From the UHGV virus genome UHGV-0093623: a stretch of 35,667 nucleotides of DNA; one strand, written 5' to 3'. Shown in pieces: positions 6,331 to 29,197 of this stretch; within the stretch, counting starts at the first letter, position 1, and every line of letters starts with the position of its first letter. A program made the position numbers and the translations under genes. The DNA comes from a virus. The notes beneath the pieces were generated by a model that ran no database searches, was not told the DNA's origin, and was given only the letters and a program-made list of their open reading frames with translations.

Positions 6331-6418
6331 AGATACTTTGTTATCCAACGATGTTAACCGCGGGAATCCAAAGTATCAAGAAATTCTGTTACTTTAGTAT
6401 CAACAGCCATGAGAGGAG
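6331..6418. promoter_or_regulatory. divergent early promoter/operator region (OR-like)
   Basis: minus-strand TTGATA-N17-TAACAT (plus 6374-6379 and 6351-6356); three copies of a GTATCA-core motif (6332-6340 inverted, 6369-6377, 6396-6404); cI RBS GAGAGGAG at 6411-6418. Confidence 0.5.
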
Positions 6419-6425
6419 AAGAAAA

Positions 6426-7082
6426 ATGAAGTCTTTAGGTGAACGTCTCATCAACGCACGGCAAAAAGCTGGGTTAACACAAGATGCGTTGGCTAAAAAA
6501 GCTGGGATCACCAGAGTTGCAATCAGTAAAGCCGAGCAAGGCCTTACAAAAAGTTTCAACGGTGACACCCTTTTTAAAGTTGCAGCTGCACTGCGGTGTT
6601 CACCGCAGTGGCTTCAGAACGGAGATGAAAAAGATAAGCATTGGGAAAATAATGTTAAGAGCTGCCCACAGAGAGACACAGCACACTCTTACCCTGTAAT
6701 TAACTGGGTTCAGGCAGGATTATTCGCAACTTCTGGTGATGACTACAACATGTATGATCAGGATAATTGGAGGCATTCTGTAAAATACGCTGGTGAGAGG
6801 GGGTTCTGGCTGGAAGTGCACGGAGACTCAATGACTTCGCCCGTAGGAATAACATTTCCTGAAGGAATGTCGATCCTTGTCAACCCAGATAAAGAAGTTT
6901 TTTCAGGGTGTTACGTCATCGCCAGAAAAAAATCCACCAATGAAGCAACATTCAAAAAATATATTTCTGACATGGGAAAGGCGTTTCTAAAGCCCCTTAA
7001 TCCACAATATCCAATCATAGAAATGGACAATGATTGCGAAATAGTAGGTGTTGTGGTTGATGCCAGGTGGGATATTTTCTGA
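6426..7082 (+). CDS. CI-like prophage repressor (HTH_XRE + S24 LexA-like peptidase)
   Basis: HTH LTQDALAKKAGITRVAISKAEQG; C-terminal GDSM and downstream Lys (ARKK); start chosen at ATG 6426 with RBS. Confidence 0.85.
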   Translation: MKSLGERLINARQKAGLTQDALAKKAGITRVAISKAEQGLTKSFNGDTLFKVAAALRCSPQWLQNGDEKDKHWENNVKSCPQRDTAHSYPVINWVQAGLFATSGDDYNMYDQDNWRHSVKYAGERGFWLEVHGDSMTSPVGITFPEGMSILVNPDKEVFSGCYVIARKKSTNEATFKKYISDMGKAFLKPLNPQYPIIEMDNDCEIVGVVVDARWDIF

Positions 7083-8377: not shown

Positions 8378-8578
8378 ATGCATCAGAAAACAGCAGAACA
8401 CGAACAAACCAGAGTATTGCTGACCATCAAAAACGGGAAAGTAATATTCATTCGCCATGTTCATGACGATGAACTTGTAGGAACTCTTTCAACATTCCTG
8501 TTTATTGCAGAAAGGGCAGGATATGACGTTATTGCACCAGCAGATGAAGATGAAGATGAAGATGAAGATGAGGAATAA
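8378..8578 (+). CDS. hypothetical 66-aa protein with poly-acidic C-terminus (DEDEDEDEE)
   Basis: GGGAGA RBS; 5 nt before the next gene. Confidence 0.55.
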   Translation: MHQKTAEHEQTRVLLTIKNGKVIFIRHVHDDELVGTLSTFLFIAERAGYDVIAPADEDEDEDEDEE

Positions 8579-8583
8579 ATATC

Positions 8584-9165
8584 ATGCAATACGATGAATT
8601 CCAGGCTGAAGCAACAGCCAATGGTATACGAACTGGCAGTATGACGATTGATTATCACGACGCCATACGTCGTCTGGATGCCGGAGAATTCGATACTCCT
8701 AATGTGCGAGGTTTACGTATCCTTCAGTGTCTGGCGCAAGCCGACGAAGCAGGATTACTGGGTAAACTTCCGGTTGAGATGAAGGTTGCTCAGTGGCGAT
8801 GGTTGTATGTGACGACATTCATCAACGAAGAAGAAGACAAGAACGGCACAATTGATATCCTGAATGAACACGGAACAACTGAACACGCCGTGGTATATAA
8901 CGGGATGTATGGGTTTATGACGATATATCCCGGCCCCATTCGATTTGCCTTACAACAGTATATTGAATGGAATTTAATTCAAAAATACGGCGAAGCTGAA
9001 GGAATGGGAAGAGCGCTGTTTCTTTATCAGAAAATGCTCACTACTTCCCCTGATAAAGGTTTCATTCTTTCAGATATGGGTCGAGAAGGGCTTGAAATCC
9101 TTCTGGATGAAATTATTAACGAAATGAATACTCATGGCATGCAATCCGAAACAGATATTAAGTAA
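8584..9165 (+). CDS. hypothetical 193-aa protein
   Basis: GAGGA RBS inside the upstream gene tail. Confidence 0.6.
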   Translation: MQYDEFQAEATANGIRTGSMTIDYHDAIRRLDAGEFDTPNVRGLRILQCLAQADEAGLLGKLPVEMKVAQWRWLYVTTFINEEEDKNGTIDILNEHGTTEHAVVYNGMYGFMTIYPGPIRFALQQYIEWNLIQKYGEAEGMGRALFLYQKMLTTSPDKGFILSDMGREGLEILLDEIINEMNTHGMQSETDIK

Positions 9166-9175
9166 AAGGGACCAC

Positions 9176-9424
9176 ATGACCGTTATCGAGTATATCCAGG
9201 AAAATCCAGATTGCAGTAGAGAAGATATATCCCTCGCACTTGGAAGAAGCGCAACTTCTATCAGTAATGAATTATCACGGTTATTGTGGAATGGGTTAAT
9301 AGTACGAACTGGAGAAAAAAACAAAATGATTCTGTACTGCGTAAACAATCTGCCGTTTGGATACAGCAATCCCCTAAGTGTTATGTTCAACCAGTTACTT
9401 AAACAGGTAAGAAATGGCAACTGA
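9176..9424 (+). CDS. hypothetical 82-aa protein, possible winged-helix DNA binding
   Basis: AAGGGA RBS 5 nt upstream of ATG 9176. Confidence 0.5.
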   Translation: MTVIEYIQENPDCSREDISLALGRSATSISNELSRLLWNGLIVRTGEKNKMILYCVNNLPFGYSNPLSVMFNQLLKQVRNGN

Positions 9425-9731
9425 CTCACAACTAACCATAGAAACGGCCCTGAATGTCGGCCTGGCGCTCCTTGGTTATTTTTACATCGTGTTCTGCAGC
9501 GGACGGTGGCTGTCGCTGTTGTTCCTGAAAAAATGGAATAAACGCCGTAAGCAGGATGAACGCCAGAAGGCAATGAATGCGTTTTCCGAAGCCTTCGGAA
9601 TTGACGGCATGGAACCAGGGGATCCAGCTCGCGCAATCAGCAGAGGGGGTGTAGTAATCCTTGTATATCGGAGTGAAGAGAAAAATGACGATCACAAAAC
9701 AACGAGTAGAAAAAATCATATATCGCCATGA
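9414..9731 (+). CDS. hypothetical single-pass membrane protein (105 aa)
   Basis: hydrophobic segment ALNVGLALLGYFYIVFCSGRWLSLLF; overlaps neighbours on both sides. Confidence 0.4.
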   Translation: MATDSQLTIETALNVGLALLGYFYIVFCSGRWLSLLFLKKWNKRRKQDERQKAMNAFSEAFGIDGMEPGDPARAISRGGVVILVYRSEEKNDDHKTTSRKNHISP

Positions 9732-9999
9732 AATGGGACTGAACAGCGATGTCACTGCCGAAGAGGTTTATGACCTGGCTGTACTGGCGCTGAATTTATC
9801 AAATATCGCAAACCTGAAGCGATACGAGCTTGATATGGATGGTTGCGACTCGTGCGGTCAGGATTGTGGCGCAGATATGACTGAAGATCCTGATGGTGAT
9901 TATGTCCTGTTTGATGACGTGGTTAAGTTGTTTGAATTTGATACAACCACTCAAAAGTTAGAAATCCCGGCAAAGGAGGCTGCCAGTGAGCAAGATTGA
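9685..9999 (+). CDS. hypothetical 104-aa acidic protein
   Basis: ATG 9685 preferred over the TTG at 9661. Confidence 0.5.
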   Translation: MTITKQRVEKIIYRHEMGLNSDVTAEEVYDLAVLALNLSNIANLKRYELDMDGCDSCGQDCGADMTEDPDGDYVLFDDVVKLFEFDTTTQKLEIPAKEAASEQD

Positions 10000-10168
10000 C
10001 TATCAGGCACTGCGCGAGGCGGCGGAACAGGCAACGCAAGATGAATGGGTAGCATATATTTGCCGGGTCATAACGGCATTTATCCTGCGCGCACGTCTGA
10101 GGGTAGGCATTGCGGATACTTTATTGACTGGCCTGGCGTCTGTCAGGGGCGGGAGAGCATCAACATGA
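9986..10168 (+). CDS. Ea22-like N-terminal module, truncated (60 aa)
   Basis: GTG start preceded by AAAGGAGG; N-terminus MSKIDYQALREAAEQA parallels the gene at 10668; stop overlaps the next ATG. Confidence 0.45.
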   Translation: MSKIDYQALREAAEQATQDEWVAYICRVITAFILRARLRVGIADTLLTGLASVRGGRAST

Positions 10169-10671
10169 GCATCAGAACCTACGCAGTGAATTGCAATGAC
10201 GCATGGCTAAACACCGAAGGTGATGACATCTCCGGCTCATACGTTAAGTACAAAGACCATCAGGAAGTGGTTGCCGCTCTTGAGGCCAAGTGCGCGGCGC
10301 TGGCAGCGGAGAATGCGGGAATAAAGTCTGCAATTCCAGAATCACGGGATATTGAAGATGACAATGACAATATGGATGACGTATCTCTCGCGGAAGACTT
10401 CGGGTTCAATCATGCAATAGAACGGATGAGGAGACAGATACCTGAAACGCCAACCACTGATGCTTTCCTGGCTGAAGTCCGGGCGCAGGGGGTGGATGCT
10501 GCTATAGAAGCTGCAAAAAATCTGGTGGCCCAAGAATATGAGTATAAGGATTTCAAAGCGGCGCAGAGTGATTGCTGTATGTACCCTGGTTCAGACCTGG
10601 TAGGGAAGGTTGAAATGACTGAGTGGTTAGTTGACTTTGCTGCCCAGCTTCGCAAAGGAGGCAACCAGTGA
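10165..10671 (+). CDS. hypothetical 168-aa acidic protein
   Basis: ATG 10165 with GGGAGAG upstream; ATGA overlap with the preceding ORF. Confidence 0.5.
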   Translation: MSIRTYAVNCNDAWLNTEGDDISGSYVKYKDHQEVVAALEAKCAALAAENAGIKSAIPESRDIEDDNDNMDDVSLAEDFGFNHAIERMRRQIPETPTTDAFLAEVRAQGVDAAIEAAKNLVAQEYEYKDFKAAQSDCCMYPGSDLVGKVEMTEWLVDFAAQLRKGGNQ

Positions 10672-11333
10672 GCGAAATTAATTACCAGGCACTGCGTGAG
10701 GTGGCGGAACGTGCAATTCCAGCAATGGAACGCCTGTTAATGTTGCCAGCTGATGATGACTTGTTAAGTGAACAGGAACTTAAAGATTACGGTGTGGATA
10801 TTGATGCGCTCAACGCCTTCAAATTTCTGACCGGACCAGAAACCGTGCTGGCACTGCTGGATGAACGGGAAAGAAACCTGCAATACATCAAAAGCCGCGA
10901 TCAGGAGAACGAGGATATTGCGCTAACGGTAGGGAAGCTGCGTGTTGAGCTGGAAGCAGCAGAGAACAACCTTATTGATAGTGAATGCCATGTTGCTGAA
11001 CTGGAAGAAGCGCTACGCGATAAGCAGGCGTTACTTGAAGCCTCAGAAAAGCGCATAGCAGAACTGGAAGCACGGGAAATAAAACCAGCCAAAGGCGAAG
11101 TTCTTGTCGTTGTATCTGGTTTTACTGGTTGCGGAAAAAGCGCCATTGCCGGGGAAATAGAAATCGCGATGAAGGCTATTGGTGTACCGGTTAAGTGGAC
11201 TAATGGCGATGCAGAAAAGCGCATGACTGGCGCTGACTGGCTGACAGCGATTGAGATGTACAAACCAACTGTGCGCATCGTGGAAGTTAATGTGCCACGC
11301 GCCGCTGGCATTCGCATCAAAGGAGGTGAGTAA
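10668..11333 (+). CDS. Ead/Ea22-like protein
   Basis: GTG start with AAAGGAGG RBS; N-terminus MSEINYQALREVAERA; TVLALLDERE motif; coiled-coil centre. Confidence 0.65.
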   Translation: MSEINYQALREVAERAIPAMERLLMLPADDDLLSEQELKDYGVDIDALNAFKFLTGPETVLALLDERERNLQYIKSRDQENEDIALTVGKLRVELEAAENNLIDSECHVAELEEALRDKQALLEASEKRIAELEAREIKPAKGEVLVVVSGFTGCGKSAIAGEIEIAMKAIGVPVKWTNGDAEKRMTGADWLTAIEMYKPTVRIVEVNVPRAAGIRIKGGE

Positions 11334-11509
11334 TGCGTGTGGCATGTATCGGCTTGTTACCGTACCCGACTCGTTTTTGGGCTTCTGCGCTAATTGCAAA
11401 GCCACATGTCCTGATGGCTGACAACATCATCCCGGCACCAAAGCGCCGCCATACCGGTATTGCATCGGCACGACGAGCAGCAAAGAGACGCAGGAGAGCA
11501 AAACGATGA
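11333..11509 (+). CDS. hypothetical 58-aa basic protein
   Basis: not in ORF track (under 60 aa); AGGAGG RBS 6 nt upstream; TAATG and ATGA overlaps with flanking genes. Confidence 0.4.
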   Translation: MRVACIGLLPYPTRFWASALIAKPHVLMADNIIPAPKRRHTGIASARRAAKRRRRAKR

Positions 11510-11697
11510 AAAACCGTAAAGCAAAGATTCTGTTAGTTCGTAGAAACGCTCCTGGCGTCTGGCAGTGGGTGAGACTCAGCAACCGACGGATGGGGTTAAT
11601 GAAACATTACGGGATGATGGATTGTGGTTTTTGCAAAAAGCCCAGCGCGGCGCAAAACCGCTGGAAAAACCACTGTCGCATTAATAAGGAAAACTGA
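11506..11697 (+). CDS. hypothetical 63-aa Cys/His-containing protein
   Basis: AGGAGA RBS; ATGA overlap. Confidence 0.5.
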   Translation: MKNRKAKILLVRRNAPGVWQWVRLSNRRMGLMKHYGMMDCGFCKKPSAAQNRWKNHCRINKEN

Positions 11698-11698
11698 T

Positions 11699-11962
11699 AT
11701 GGCAACTTTGACAAAAAAAGAACAGGCATGGTTGAACGAATTACAGGACGTTCTTGATCGCTGCCCATCACCGAAAAAAATTGGTTTTTACACCATTGGC
11801 GATAAAAGCATTTACCTGTATGACCTGCGCCGCATGGATGAAATCATGGAGGCTCTTGATAATCGTTCGTCAATGGATTGGTGTGTTGCTGTCCATGATA
11901 TGAATGCAGGGTTTGATGAAAAGATTTTGTTCCCCTCATCAGTTGAAAGCACTGCGGGTTAA
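11699..11962 (+). CDS. hypothetical 87-aa protein
   Basis: ATG 11699 with AAGGA upstream. Confidence 0.55.
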   Translation: MATLTKKEQAWLNELQDVLDRCPSPKKIGFYTIGDKSIYLYDLRRMDEIMEALDNRSSMDWCVAVHDMNAGFDEKILFPSSVESTAG

Positions 11963-11972
11963 GGAGTAACAC

Positions 11973-12140
11973 ATGACCACTATTACCAAAGAACGTATTG
12001 AATTGTTCATTAAAAACCCGCTTGAAAACGGGCTTACCCGTGGTGAACAAATGGAACTGGCACGGATTGCGCTGGCATCGCTGGAAGCAGAGCCGGTTGT
12101 GTTCTGGTTTGAAAAATATCAAGAAGGGGCTACGGCATGA
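11973..12140 (+). CDS. hypothetical 55-aa protein, paralogous at its N-terminus to the next gene
   Basis: not in ORF track; AAGGAG RBS 6 nt upstream; MTTITKERI vs MTTFTREQL; ATGA overlap with 12137. Confidence 0.5.
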
Positions 12141-12481
12141 CGACTTTTACCAGAGAGCAGTTAATAGCTCACGCAGAGGAGACTATTGAAGCACAGAGAC
12201 TGTGCATACCGGGCACAATCGACCATGACATCATCCGCACATATAAGATGGATATTGCTGTTCTGGAAATCGCACTGGTATCGCTGGCAGCAGAGCCAGC
12301 CGGTAAATTGCATGAATACAAACCAGTGGGATATCAGCGTCTGGTCGATGAGTTAACCATGCTGGTAAAGCAGTTAACCTGGCAACTGAGGAAAGCGAAG
12401 CCAGACTGCAAATTACCGGATAAGGCGATGAGTTATCTGGAGCGGAACGGACTGATAAGCGTGGAGGATATTTTACGATGA
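12137..12481 (+). CDS. hypothetical 114-aa protein
   Basis: ORF track; ATGA overlap. Confidence 0.6.
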
Positions 12482-12561
12482 CCTGGCCTGAAGCATTAAC
12501 AACGGTAGGAATTGCGATGGCGGTGGCGCTGGTGGTGTATTCGATTTGCCGCTGGGGATAA
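12478..12561 (+). CDS. candidate 27-aa hydrophobic peptide ([27 protein letters not shown])
   Basis: ATGA overlap with the upstream stop; GGAGGA 9 nt upstream; single predicted TM helix. Confidence 0.3.
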
Positions 12562-12659
12562 AAACGGTTTGCGGGAAAAGGAGAGTTAAGTAGAATTGCA
12601 GCGGGTGCTTGAGGCTATCTGTCTCAGGCATGAACACCAAAAGGCAGATAGAGAAAAGC

Positions 12660-14510
12660 CCCAGTTAACATTACGCGTCCTGCAAGACGCTTAACATTAA
12701 TCTGAGGCCAATTTCATGCTAGACACATGTAGGTTAGCCTCTTACGTGCCGAAAGGCACGGAGAAGCAGGCTATTGTTAACACCAAGCTGTAATGTCCCC
12801 TTTGAACCATTCTAAAATGTCCCCAGACAATTCTCTGGGGGATTTTTCATGATCAAAGAGACTGTTACGATGAGTCATAAGGAACTCCACCGACTTCAGA
12901 TTATTCAGGAACAAGCTGCGGCACGCATTGGCATTTCTATTCGGCAGGTTAAACGTCTGGTGCAACGGTATAGAAATGAAGGGCCTTCTGCTCTGGTTTC
13001 CCACCGACGTGGAAAGCGTCCTAATAATTCCTTTTCTACTGAATTCAGAGCAACAGTAATTTCACTCCTCAAAGGCCGTTACGCTGATTTTGGACCTACG
13101 TTTGCGTGCGAAAAATTGCGCGAGATACACGGTTTATCTTTATCCGTTGAAACTCTCAGAAAGTGGATGATAGAAGAGGGGTTATGGCGTGAACGCCGTC
13201 GTAAAATTGCCCGTATATATCAACGCCGCATGCGACGACCATCTTACGGTGAACTGATCCAGATTGATGGCTCACCTCATGACTGGTTTGAAAATCGAGG
13301 CCCCAGATGTACACTGATCGTTTTCATTGATGATGCCACCAGTGCGTTGATGGCGTTGCGTTTTGTGCCTGCTGAAACAACCCGGGCTTACATGGAAACC
13401 CTCCGGGGTTACCTTAATGATCATGGCGTACCGCTCGCTCTCTACTCTGATAGACACAGTATATTCAGGGTAAATAACCCAGAGCGGGAAGGTGAGCTGA
13501 CCCAGTTCACTCGTGCGATAAAGACACTGGGCATCGAGCCAATCCATGCCAACAGCCCGCAGGCAAAAGGGCGGGTAGAGCGCGCCAATCAGACACTACA
13601 GGACAGGCTGGTCAAAGAAATGCGGCTTCAGAATATCAGTGATATTGAAACAGCAAATGCATGGTTGCCGACCTTTATTGAAGCCTATAACAACCGGTTC
13701 GCTACGTCGCCTCGTACTACTGATAATGCTCATCTTGATGTGCACCATTCTGAAGAGGAACTGGGTTATATCTTCAGCCTACAGGCGAAGCGCGTTCTGT
13801 CTAAAAATCTCACTTTCCAGTACAAAAGCAGTGCGTTTCAGGTACGCAGTGAGGGCCGGGGATATCGACTTAGGCATTCGGTTGTTACTGTATGCGAGAA
13901 CTTTGACGGTGAAATTAACGTTCTGTATGACGGGAAAGCGCTGGGCTGGGAAAAGTATGTTGATGGCCCGGAGCCTATACCACTGGATGATGAAAAGAGT
14001 GTCCATGAACGAGTGGATAATGCCCGTATTGATTTACGCTCAAAATACTATGTTAAACCTAAAGCTGACCATCCCTGGCTTACGCGCCGAACGCAAAGTC
14101 ATCAGCAAGTTAAGCCCCCGAAGTTACCTAAAAAGAAGCCTGATCCCGATAAAAAAGATTGAAACCAAGATCGATTCGGTTGAGTGCATATCCATTCATA
14201 GGGTAGATTCTTAAGTCGCGTTTCTGGTGTTCATTTTCGGGTGGTTTGTTACTTGTTTTACCGGGGATATGCCAGAAACGCGCTGAGTCAGTCTGGGCGG
14301 TGCGCGTAATGAGGCGTTATGGTAAATAGCCTATGCTAATGTCCGCTAAGAGCAAGAAGCGGAAGTTGGCAGTTTTGTGGACTGTCCCCACAAAAGTGAC
14401 TACAGAAATAGTTGCAATTCATAATTGATCATGGGTTGTCAGTTAAACTCGTGGCGATTTAAATAGACTAATTGGGAGTGCGTCCATTACTTATATCTTG
14501 TAATGTTAAC
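12660..14510. mobile_element. insertion sequence (approximate extent) carrying the DDE transposase
   Basis: candidate 12-bp terminal inverted repeat AGTTAACATTAC near 12663-12674 and its reverse complement near 14499-14510; boundaries not verified. Confidence 0.25.
12849..14162 (+). CDS. DDE-type transposase (N-terminal HTH + integrase-core fold), IS481/ISNCY-like
   Basis: 437 aa; N-terminal HTH region, central acidic residues in IQIDGSPHD and FIDDATS; family assignment tentative. Confidence 0.8.
   Translation: MIKETVTMSHKELHRLQIIQEQAAARIGISIRQVKRLVQRYRNEGPSALVSHRRGKRPNNSFSTEFRATVISLLKGRYADFGPTFACEKLREIHGLSLSVETLRKWMIEEGLWRERRRKIARIYQRRMRRPSYGELIQIDGSPHDWFENRGPRCTLIVFIDDATSALMALRFVPAETTRAYMETLRGYLNDHGVPLALYSDRHSIFRVNNPEREGELTQFTRAIKTLGIEPIHANSPQAKGRVERANQTLQDRLVKEMRLQNISDIETANAWLPTFIEAYNNRFATSPRTTDNAHLDVHHSEEELGYIFSLQAKRVLSKNLTFQYKSSAFQVRSEGRGYRLRHSVVTVCENFDGEINVLYDGKALGWEKYVDGPEPIPLDDEKSVHERVDNARIDLRSKYYVKPKADHPWLTRRTQSHQQVKPPKLPKKKPDPDKKD

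Positions 14511-25490: not shown

Positions 25491-25516
<26 letters not shown>
24971..25516 (+). CDS. nu1: terminase small subunit Nu1
   Basis: 181 aa, MEVNKKQLADIFGASIRTIQNWQEQGMPV... recognised as lambda Nu1. Confidence 0.95.

Positions 25517-29197
<3,681 letters not shown>

Follow-up and report, generated by a model that had tools for sequence, protein, structure and literature searches.

Introduction

Two consecutive genes of a prophage-like viral genome begin with nearly the same sequence, and the first of them reads as a short frame followed by a longer one in another frame. Does the repeated block mark a joint at which genes have been exchanged, and are the two frames behind its first copy one damaged gene or two genes? 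We addressed both questions in UHGV virus genome UHGV-0093623, a stretch of 35,667 nt hereafter called the window. All positions are those of the window; the two genes, their reading frames and the motifs described in them lie on its + strand.

The genes belong to the Ead/Ea22 family (PF13935). Ea22 proteins consist of a short N-terminal segment, a central coiled coil and a variable C-terminal domain (PMC10834534), and their genes are mosaics in which the amino-terminal segment and the coiled coil are held in common while the C-terminal domains are unrelated (PMC10834534, PMC7093339). A C-terminal K/RGE motif is also common to Ea22 proteins (PMC7093339). Experiments on Ea22 of lambda and of Stx phages revealed a tetrameric protein with pro-lysogenic activity (PMC7093339, PMC10834534).

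Results

A repeated start module heads two tandem Ea22-like genes

The block is a 65-nt direct repeat (9970-10034 and 10652-10716), the copies of which align without gaps at a spacing of 682 nt, with 54 of the 65 positions identical (83%). By a binomial estimate, about 8e-14 pairs as good (on the order of 1e-13) would be expected anywhere in the window. A degenerate 45-nt pattern of the module matches the window twice only, at the two copies themselves, and never in 100 shuffles; no third copy was found in the window with up to three mismatches allowed. Each copy comprises the Shine-Dalgarno sequence AAAGGAGG (9972-9979 and 10654-10661), a GTG start 6 nt further on (9986 and 10668) and codons 1-16 of one of two tandem genes, named here gene 1 and gene 2. 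The two products open with the peptides MSKIDYQALREAAEQA and MSEINYQALREVAERA. Hence the module encodes an N-terminal helix with the consensus MS(K/E)I(D/N)YQALRE(A/V)AE(Q/R)A, which is also present in lambda ea22. The first-pass annotation had pointed to a near-identical block with a GTG start and a shared N-terminal peptide at the head of two genes, and the alignment of the copies agrees with it in each respect.

Beyond codon ~17-21, genes 1 and 2 are unrelated in DNA and barely related in protein. Within the coding part of the module, 10 of the 12 identical residues have identical codons in the two-copy alignment, which is only moderately more than expected. Protein constraint on the N-terminal helix, and not recombination, could account for much of the conservation of this part. 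On the 5' side of the GTG, 14 of 16 nt are identical between the copies, although in each copy they encode the tail of another upstream protein, read in another frame. Upstream of gene 1, this tail belongs to a hypothetical gene (9685-9999; WP_001300189.1 in relatives), the final 30 nt of which overlap copy 1 in another frame; in copy 2, the first 20 nt double as the C-terminus of gene 1 (RKGGNQ, then stop). The sequence AAAGGAGG occurs three times in the window, every time at the boundary of an Ea22 gene, a number that is not significant in itself (9 of 100 shuffles reach three). When 91 nt around each copy were folded, shuffled versions gave the more stable structures in both cases (z = +1.42 and +1.10), so that no conserved hairpin or riboregulator is indicated.

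Gene 1 reads as a single gene interrupted by a one-nucleotide deletion

Gene 1 (9986-10671) appears as a pseudogene in the window, with its family domain split over two frames. PF13935 positions 1-25 match the 60-aa ORF (38.8 bits), and positions 24-138 match the frame that is open from 10045 (51.3 bits). The repaired gene, represented by the L003 allele, gives a single match to positions 1-138 (102.2 bits; the gathering score that defines membership is 27 bits). Intact alleles such as those of L003 (WP_033877702.1) and L006 (WP_000034225.1) are one T longer than the window and encode a single protein of 228 aa in 687 nt. Allele alignments place the lesion at 10059-10061, where the window has TTT and intact alleles have TTTT, the frame being lost after codon 25 (ATT, 10058-10060). 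The truncated 60-aa frame (9986-10168) retains the authentic Ea22 N-terminus as residues 1-25; the following residues 26-60, up to the stop at 10166-10168, are read out of frame. From an internal Met whose ATG overlaps the premature TGA (ATGA), the 168-aa ORF (10165-10671) covers what are residues 61-228 in the intact protein. Its frame is already open from 10045, as a 208-aa ORF, and the frame changes ~105 nt before the ATGA junction is reached. Judged by these alignments, gene 1 is a single Ea22-like gene broken by the loss of a T from a T4 run, the ATGA overlap looks incidental and the 168-aa ORF would be the remainder of the original frame read from an internal Met. We infer that the broken gene is non-functional.

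The suspicion of a frameshifted Ea22-like paralogue, voiced in the first-pass annotation, is therefore upheld by PF13935 running across two frames and by T4 alleles that read through; the comparison with intact Ea22-like genes that it proposed identifies 9986-10671 as one frameshifted gene. It had also correctly described a first frame ending after 60 codons, followed by a 168-aa ORF in another frame with an ATGA junction, but the change of frame occurs at 10059-10061 and not at the ATGA.

The missing T might instead be a sequencing or assembly error, gene 1 being intact in reality. Long-read assemblies often contain single-base homopolymer errors, which could also account for the extra lesions of L004 (in a G5 run) and L005. 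However, a run of three or four nucleotides is a weak error hotspot, and the identical 91-nt haplotype of the window occurs in 7 independently sequenced complete genomes, which may be related to each other and so amount to few independent observations. In addition, one of these genomes, SF-088, agrees with the window at 99.8% over the 1,959 flanking nt, which argues for an inherited allele. The SF-088 pseudogene (AN203_RS10140) and others share the gene 1 sequence and the delta-T lesion identically, with no difference in gene 1. An error at this position is thus very unlikely.

Broken alleles are a minority and arose by more than one lesion

Haplotypes were typed in 5,426 complete E. coli genomes; ~234 E. 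coli loci contain the 92-nt stretch concerned. The intact form was found in 144 records, a +TG form in 34 and the window type in 7-8, so that broken alleles together make up roughly a fifth (~42 of ~186 typed records). All five phage records that hold the gene 1 stretch carry the intact form. The +TG lesion (10111-10112; TG in the window and in intact alleles, TGTG in L002, L005 and L007) falls at codon ~43 and is independent of delta-T at codon 25. L004 and L005 have additional downstream indels in gene 1, as expected for a decaying gene.

PGAP treats this locus inconsistently. In SF-088, AR_0372 and strain 700462, the sequence identical to the window's is marked as an Ea22-like pseudogene, 'frameshifted', while two 'ead/Ea22-like family protein' genes are called in L002 and L007. 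Such calls would suit two genuine, maintained genes coupled by termination-reinitiation at the ATGA, which is how PGAP annotates O55:H7 RM12579. Broken alleles are not rare in the census, and both delta-T and +TG end at one TGA, with the overlapping ATG preceded by GGGAGAG. The common stop is nevertheless trivial, because both lesions shift into the same wrong frame, and the two-gene calls of L002 and L007 stem from +TG, not from the window's lesion. Furthermore, the short ORF is out of the gene's frame at residues 26-60, which have no Pfam match, PF13935 continuing in the other frame, and in two of the six broken alleles sampled the 168-aa ORF is itself frameshifted again. Most alleles have the single 228-aa ORF, which is also the sole form in phage records. 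Conservation of both ORFs as separate intact genes across relatives, the outcome that the first-pass annotation had named as speaking against it, was thus not observed. Two maintained genes are highly improbable. The RefSeq 60-aa and 168-aa "Ea22-like" proteins (WP_001300192.1 and WP_000027851.1) are fragments of one 228-aa gene, a matter of little importance beyond annotation hygiene.

Gene 1 alleles of 685, 686, 687, 688 and 689 nt coexist among near-identical prophages, and one lesion lies in a homopolymer. This could be expected if gene 1 were toggled by a programmed change, either ribosomal frameshifting or phase variation of the T run. Yet the length classes arise at four sites (the T run, TG/TGTG, the G5 run and a non-repeat T) rather than at one variable tract, and the T3/T4 tract is far shorter than known contingency tracts; the locus was rejected as a phase-variable homopolymer. 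It was likewise rejected as a programmed ribosomal frameshift site: positions 10050-10065 (GCA TAT ATT TGC CGG) hold no X XXY YYZ slippery heptamer, the module region has no unusual RNA structure, and the frameshift is not conserved, most relatives being in-frame and the lesions differing by lineage. A programmed change is extremely unlikely.

Gene 2 is intact and lies in the early leftward operon

Gene 2 (10668-11333) encodes an intact Ead/Ea22-like protein of 221 aa (PF13935 1-139, 114.9 bits) and is, of the pair, the closer to lambda Ea22, with 45% identity over aa 1-148 (E 4e-31). It aligns with lambda Ea22 residues 1-115, the N-terminus and coiled coil, and diverges after. The coiled coil itself is suggested by weak coiled-coil-type Pfam matches. 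Gene 2 thus displays the three-part Ea22 architecture: an N-terminal segment, a predicted coiled coil and a variable C-terminal part. Its DNA is ~99% identical to the Ea22 gene of phage PhiR49_2. A further mosaic joint lies within it, at 10959/10960: SF-088-type prophages are 99.8% identical to the window up to 10959 and unrelated beyond, the window departing from them only downstream of this position, so that the C-terminal part of gene 2 has been exchanged relative to the SF-088-type gene.

At its 3' end, gene 2 has a conserved boundary, CGCTGGCATTCGCATCAAAGGAG (11303-11325), which codes for ...AGIRIKGG and matches the 3' end of lambda ea22 exactly. This boundary holds the Shine-Dalgarno sequence AAAGGAGG (11319-11326) of the next ORF, which starts with ATG at 11333. 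The C-termini are ...IRIKGGE in gene 2, ...IRIKGE in lambda Ea22 and, as a variant of the K/RGE motif, ...LRKGGNQ in gene 1, each followed by the stop. In both window genes, the codons of the K/RGE-type motif double as the next gene's ribosome-binding site, AAAGGAGG. No NCBIfam family was found for either gene, and searches of solved structures (PDB) with gene 2 and repaired gene 1 returned low-complexity and coiled-coil noise only.

The window carries a cI-like HTH+S24 repressor (6351-7082), a DnaB-like helicase and, upstream of the Ea22-like genes, DUF4752. In near-identical prophages the operon runs on to the excisionase (xis) and integrase (int) genes; in the window it breaks off at ~12561, ahead of an ISNCY transposase. 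By gene content, both genes are assigned to the leftward early operon of a lambdoid prophage, equivalent to the lambda exo-xis region. They occupy the Ead/Ea22 location, from the immunity/recombination genes to xis-int.

The start module behaves as a recombination joint

Although 2,229 records match window positions 9850-10150, only 30 of them cover at least 80%. For the region around copy 2, the corresponding numbers are 1,950 and 298. In sampled E. coli records, the matches break at the module: around copy 1, all 44 internal starts fall within it and 42 of the 55 internal ends at 10005-10040; around copy 2, all 47 internal starts fall at 10629-10676 and 33 of the 36 internal ends at 10687-10722. 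Breakpoints at a conserved island are partly inevitable, as alignments end only where similarity ends. Gene 1 is itself segmental, only 52 records covering at least 80% of it. The module is not the unique recombination site of the region, joints being found also at 10959/10960 and within gene 1.

In ~2,000 E. coli genomes, the module heads otherwise unrelated Ea22-like genes with diverse neighbour genes. PhiR49_2 and S1-ISR-02-A are exactly 682 nt shorter at this locus; they have no gene 1 cassette and a single hybrid module, which is copy-1-like until CAGGCACTGCG, a stretch that is the same in both window copies (10004-10014 and 10686-10696), and copy-2-like beyond. In pGF60-C, two further switches occur within the module. 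The features of cassette exchange are found here: a conserved block amid unrelated sequence, breakpoints at its edges, hybrid copies and presence or absence of a gene bounded by the repeats. The mosaic joint or recombination scar proposed at first reading is supported by the hybrid modules, the exact 682-nt difference and the endpoints at the module edges.

The block might have been kept only for its N-terminal helix and strong ribosome-binding site, recombination making no particular use of it. Its coding part, which matches PF13935 positions 1-25, is conserved also in lambda ea22, whose Shine-Dalgarno region differs, and the lack of structure in its RNA would suit a region where translation starts efficiently. 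On the other hand, the 14/16 identity 5' of the GTG spans the tails of different proteins in different frames, and the hybrid modules and the exact 682-nt cassette difference show exchanges inside the block. Such constraint is compatible with the explanation preferred below as the reason why the block is conserved; as a complete account it is refuted by the hybrid modules and is unlikely.

Discussion

On the sequence evidence, the locus very probably consists of tandem Ead/Ea22 paralogues whose shared start block serves as a recombination patch, gene 1 having been frameshifted separately, that is, of ordinary mosaicism plus decay. Hundreds of Ea22-like genes that otherwise diverge begin with this block, which would on that account offer a patch of shared homology. 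There, homologous recombination by host RecA or a phage Red/RecET-type system may join varied upstream genes to varied Ea22 bodies and delete or add whole cassettes. One crossover between the two copies of the window would remove exactly the 682-bp gene 1 cassette and leave a hybrid module of the PhiR49_2 / S1-ISR-02-A type; the event might instead have been an insertion. Separately, an ordinary mutation has removed a T from the T4 run, and gene 1 is now read in the Ea22 frame up to codon 25 only and ends at the stop at 10166-10168.

Lambda Ea22 is among the closest known counterparts. Lambda ea22 opens with the same GTG-AGC-GAA-ATT-AAC...CAGGCACTGCGTGA block and closes with the same ...GGCATTCGCATCAAAGGAG, both window genes pass the PF13935 threshold, and the location in the early leftward operon is shared. 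In contrast to lambda, the window has two tandem copies instead of one; gene 1 is alike only in its first 21 residues and is frameshifted; and the C-terminal domains of the window genes are unrelated to the solved lambda Ea22 C-terminal domain and match nothing in the PDB. The pro-lysogenic function was demonstrated with lambda and Stx-phage Ea22.

Conserved boundary (linker) sequences and module exchange in lambdoid phages were reportedly described by Susskind & Botstein in 1978 and by Clark et al. in 2001 (both cited in PMC3029335). In mycobacteriophage Island3, a ~50-bp repeat flanks an inserted gene (PMC3029335). The window resembles these boundary sequences in having a short conserved block at gene boundaries amid unrelated sequence, and in the presence or absence of a whole gene bounded by repeat copies, with a hybrid repeat in the shorter genomes. 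It differs in that its block is mostly coding: it specifies the N-terminus of the family's domain instead of lying between genes as a linker, so that constraint on the protein accounts for at least part of its conservation.

Two independent early frameshifts, present in about a fifth of the alleles and leading to the same TGA overlapping an ATG with a plausible ribosome-binding site, could suggest that the breakage of gene 1 is selected. Resident prophages would then be under selection to lose the N-terminal domain, yet would still make, through reinitiation, a 168-aa product of coiled coil and C-terminal domain, or else a 60-aa N-terminal peptide able to disturb Ea22 oligomers, while the 5' module and the 3' '...IRIKGG/AAAGGAGG' boundary would form a dedicated system for exchanging Ea22 effector domains. 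We regard this as quite improbable and favour ordinary mosaicism and decay.

Ea22 mosaicism, exchange at short shared sequences and prophage gene decay are all well established and already known. What this locus adds is a clean, base-resolved example of how, through a conserved N-terminal coding block, Ea22 cassettes can be lost, gained and newly combined in lambdoid prophages and P1-like phage-plasmids, an example that is useful for studies of the exo-xis region.

A repeated start module in two tandem genes

The window carries two tandem Ead/Ea22-like (PF13935) genes, gene 1 (9986-10671) and gene 2 (10668-11333), which the first-pass annotation had described as opening with nearly the same block. 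This pairing holds over a 65-nt ungapped direct repeat, 9970-10034 (copy 1) and 10652-10716 (copy 2), with a spacing of 682, 54/65 identical positions and a GTG start in both copies. Each copy of this module is laid out as AAAGGAGG, a 6-nt spacer, the GTG start and 16 codons, the encoded peptides being MSKIDYQALREAAEQA (copy 1) and MSEINYQALREVAERA (copy 2). A degenerate 45-nt pattern of the module matches just these two sites in the window, with 0 matches in 100 shuffles, and by the binomial about 8e-14 equally good repeat pairs would be expected across the whole window.

Beyond the first ~17-21 residues, BLASTP found no likeness between gene 1 and gene 2. In its N-terminal segment and coiled coil, gene 2 aligns with lambda Ea22 (45% identity, E 4e-31), whereas the gene 1 match to lambda Ea22 is limited to the first 21 residues. 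Lambda ea22 opens with the same coding block as the module, but its ribosome-binding region differs. Around the module, the RNA shows no more structure than shuffled controls, and if anything less. The module must owe part of its conservation to constraint acting on the N-terminal helix and on translation initiation.

Exchange within the module

In phage PhiR49_2 (PV340570.1) and in E. coli S1-ISR-02-A, the upstream gene and gene 2 are found as in the window, without gene 1, and the region is shorter by exactly 682 nt. Their single module is a hybrid, copy-1-like up to ...AGCAAGATTGACTAT and copy-2-like from ...TGAGGTGGCGGAACGTGCAATTCC; the switch therefore lies within an 11-mer common to both copies, CAGGCACTGCG (10004-10014 and 10686-10696). 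A single crossover between the two module copies of the window would give exactly this arrangement. The history may also have run in reverse, with the gene 1 cassette inserted by two exchanges. Besides the switch within the 11-mer, two additional switches within the module are seen in the P1-like plasmid pGF60-C: in one, gene 1 is preceded by another upstream gene and a third variant of the first half; in the other, a copy-1-like first half leads into a different gene 2.

Searching E. coli with 301 nt centred on copy 1 gave 2,229 matching records in 2,071 genomes, just 30 of the records with at least 80% coverage of the query. Sixty records were sampled evenly: of the internal alignment starts, 44 in number, every one fell inside copy 1 (36 at 9970-9975), and 42 of 55 internal ends fell at 10005-10040, with the proviso that an alignment can only stop where similarity stops. 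Copy 2 showed the same endpoint behaviour. The genes neighbouring the module in E. coli are many and varied, including DUF2737, DUF7446, TraR/DksA, DUF1627, Lar and YfdS. Together, the hybrid modules, the exact 682-nt difference and the clustered breakpoints uphold the suspected recombination scar: they show that exchange happens within the repeated block, which acts as a mosaic joint. The papers of Susskind & Botstein (1978) and Clark et al. (2001) are the classic lambdoid accounts of module exchange. Phage module exchange at short shared sequences is well known, including gene insertion flanked by ~50-bp repeats (PMC3029335).

The module is not the sole joint in the region. Over 9001-10959 the window matches SF-088-type prophages at 99.8% identity, and beyond that point they are unrelated to it, which places a sharp joint inside the coiled coil of gene 2, at 10959-10960. 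PhiR49_2 is ~99% identical over 10652-11992; the left part of the window is thus SF-088-like and its right part PhiR49_2-like, with 10652-10959 common to both. Gene 1 is itself segmental: it has some match in 1,105 E. coli records, with at least 80% coverage in just 52, and its segments (nt ~1-335, 312-505 and 458-687) are found separately, beside differing partners, in other prophages and P1-like plasmids.

A frameshift in gene 1

As first noted, gene 1 reads as an ORF that stops after 60 codons (9986-10168), followed in another frame by a 168-aa ORF (10165-10671) whose ATG overlaps the TGA as ATGA (10165-10168). Positions 1-25 of the 139-position PF13935 profile (Ead_Ea22) match residues 2-26 of the 60-aa ORF, and positions 24-138 match the other frame, open from 10045. 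As the profile passes between frames at positions 24-25, the frame change lies near 10060 and not at the ATGA junction. In the near-identical E. coli prophages of BEC1-S17-ESBL-09 and NMBU_W05E18, gene 1 is 687 nt long and its product is one 228-aa "ead/Ea22-like family protein" (WP_033877702.1 and WP_000034225.1, respectively); the intact protein gives one unbroken PF13935 match (102 bits). Within the first 200 nt, the sole difference from the window is ...GCATATATTTTGCC (T4) versus ...GCATATATTTGCC (T3). Frame is lost after codon 25 at TTT (10059-10061), which puts the change upstream of the ATGA junction by ~105 nt; the two frames differ as first described, and only the place of the change moves. 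The split profile and the intact alleles bear out a frameshifted Ea22-like paralogue, and 9986-10671 is one gene with a 1-nt deletion. In SF-088, AR_0372 and strain 700462, which have the identical sequence, PGAP already labels it a "frameshifted" Ea22-like pseudogene.

Prophage loci L002, L005 and L007 bear a second lesion, independent of the first: TG has become TGTG at the equivalent of window 10111-10112. These are the records that PGAP annotates with two genes (61 and 168 aa). L004 has one additional downstream indel, and so does L005. Haplotype queries of 91-94 nt covering both lesion sites were searched against 5,426 complete E. coli genomes, where ~234 records hold the stretch. At ≥99% identity, the intact haplotype (T4/TG) was found in 144 records, T4/TGTG in 34 and the window haplotype (T3/TG) in 8, of which 7 are listed at 100%, all chromosomal. 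All five phage records with the stretch, P1-like phages included, have the intact form. From these counts and the intact phage records, the window frameshift is a rare yet recurrently observed allele of a normally intact gene; with 144 intact records against 8, the two ORFs are not conserved as separate genes. Phase variation was rejected, as the tract is too short and length variants arise from four different sites, and so was programmed recoding, the slippery heptamer being absent.

RefSeq treats the broken gene unevenly: some genomes have it as a pseudogene ("frameshifted"), others as WP_001300192.1 plus WP_000027851.1. Annotation of the locus equivalent to window 9986-11150 is inconsistent (L001 3387-4554, L002 3387-4557), and the downstream Ea22-like gene is annotated from two start codons (L001 4126, L002 4072), the later of which omits the conserved GTG start module.

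Operon setting

Both genes belong to the leftward early operon of a lambdoid prophage, with DUF4752 immediately upstream, a cI-like HTH+S24 repressor at 6351-7082, and a DnaB-like helicase and a Rha-like gene on the opposite strand. In relatives, the operon continues with excisionase and then integrase; none of the genes that come next there (DUF4222, excisionase, integrase) turned up in any part of the window. Homology to reference prophages ends at 12561, an ISNCY-family transposase gene follows (12849-14162, 455.7 bits), and long ORFs lie downstream on the same strand (e.g. 641 aa at 25491-27416). The prophage arm at 12561-14162 may be disrupted or rearranged.

Two adjacent small ORFs, 11973-12140 (MTTITKE...) and 12137-12481 (MTTFTRE...), have similar starts and share 26-29-nt repeats (12052-12094 and 12264-12297, spacing 203-212); they may form a second tandem paralogue pair in the operon. 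A GATGAA-type trinucleotide/hexanucleotide repeat (8533-8576) encodes the acidic tail DEDEDEDEDEE that ends a 66-aa ORF (8378-8578).

Gene 2 and the Ea22 family

The C-terminal domain of gene 2, just ~75 residues long, has a Walker-A-like motif, GFTGCGKS (residues 151-158, window 11118-11141). Its matches with APS kinase and AAA P-loop families are weak and below threshold (E 0.06-0.13 for Pfam models, 0.004-0.1 for those of NCBIfam). Ea22 of PhiR49_2 and of P1-like phages has this domain too.

The family and its behaviour are already known, and the pseudogene is already flagged in public annotation of identical sequence. Ea22 proteins comprise an N-terminal segment, a coiled coil and a variable C-terminal domain; their genes are mosaics with a common amino-terminal segment (IPR025153), and the proteins are described as pro-lysogenic and as ending in a K/RGE motif (PMC10834534, PMC7093339). 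The last 23 nt before the end of gene 2, CGCTGGCATTCGCATCAAAGGAG (11303-11325), are identical to the lambda ea22 3' end, although the C-terminal domains differ. What encodes the published K/RGE motif is the next gene's ribosome-binding site, AAAGGAGG (in the window within 11303-11326, and likewise at 10652-10661 and 9970-9979). The motif may therefore stem from the signal for translating the downstream gene, or from a boundary sequence at the 3' end, and not from a function of the protein.
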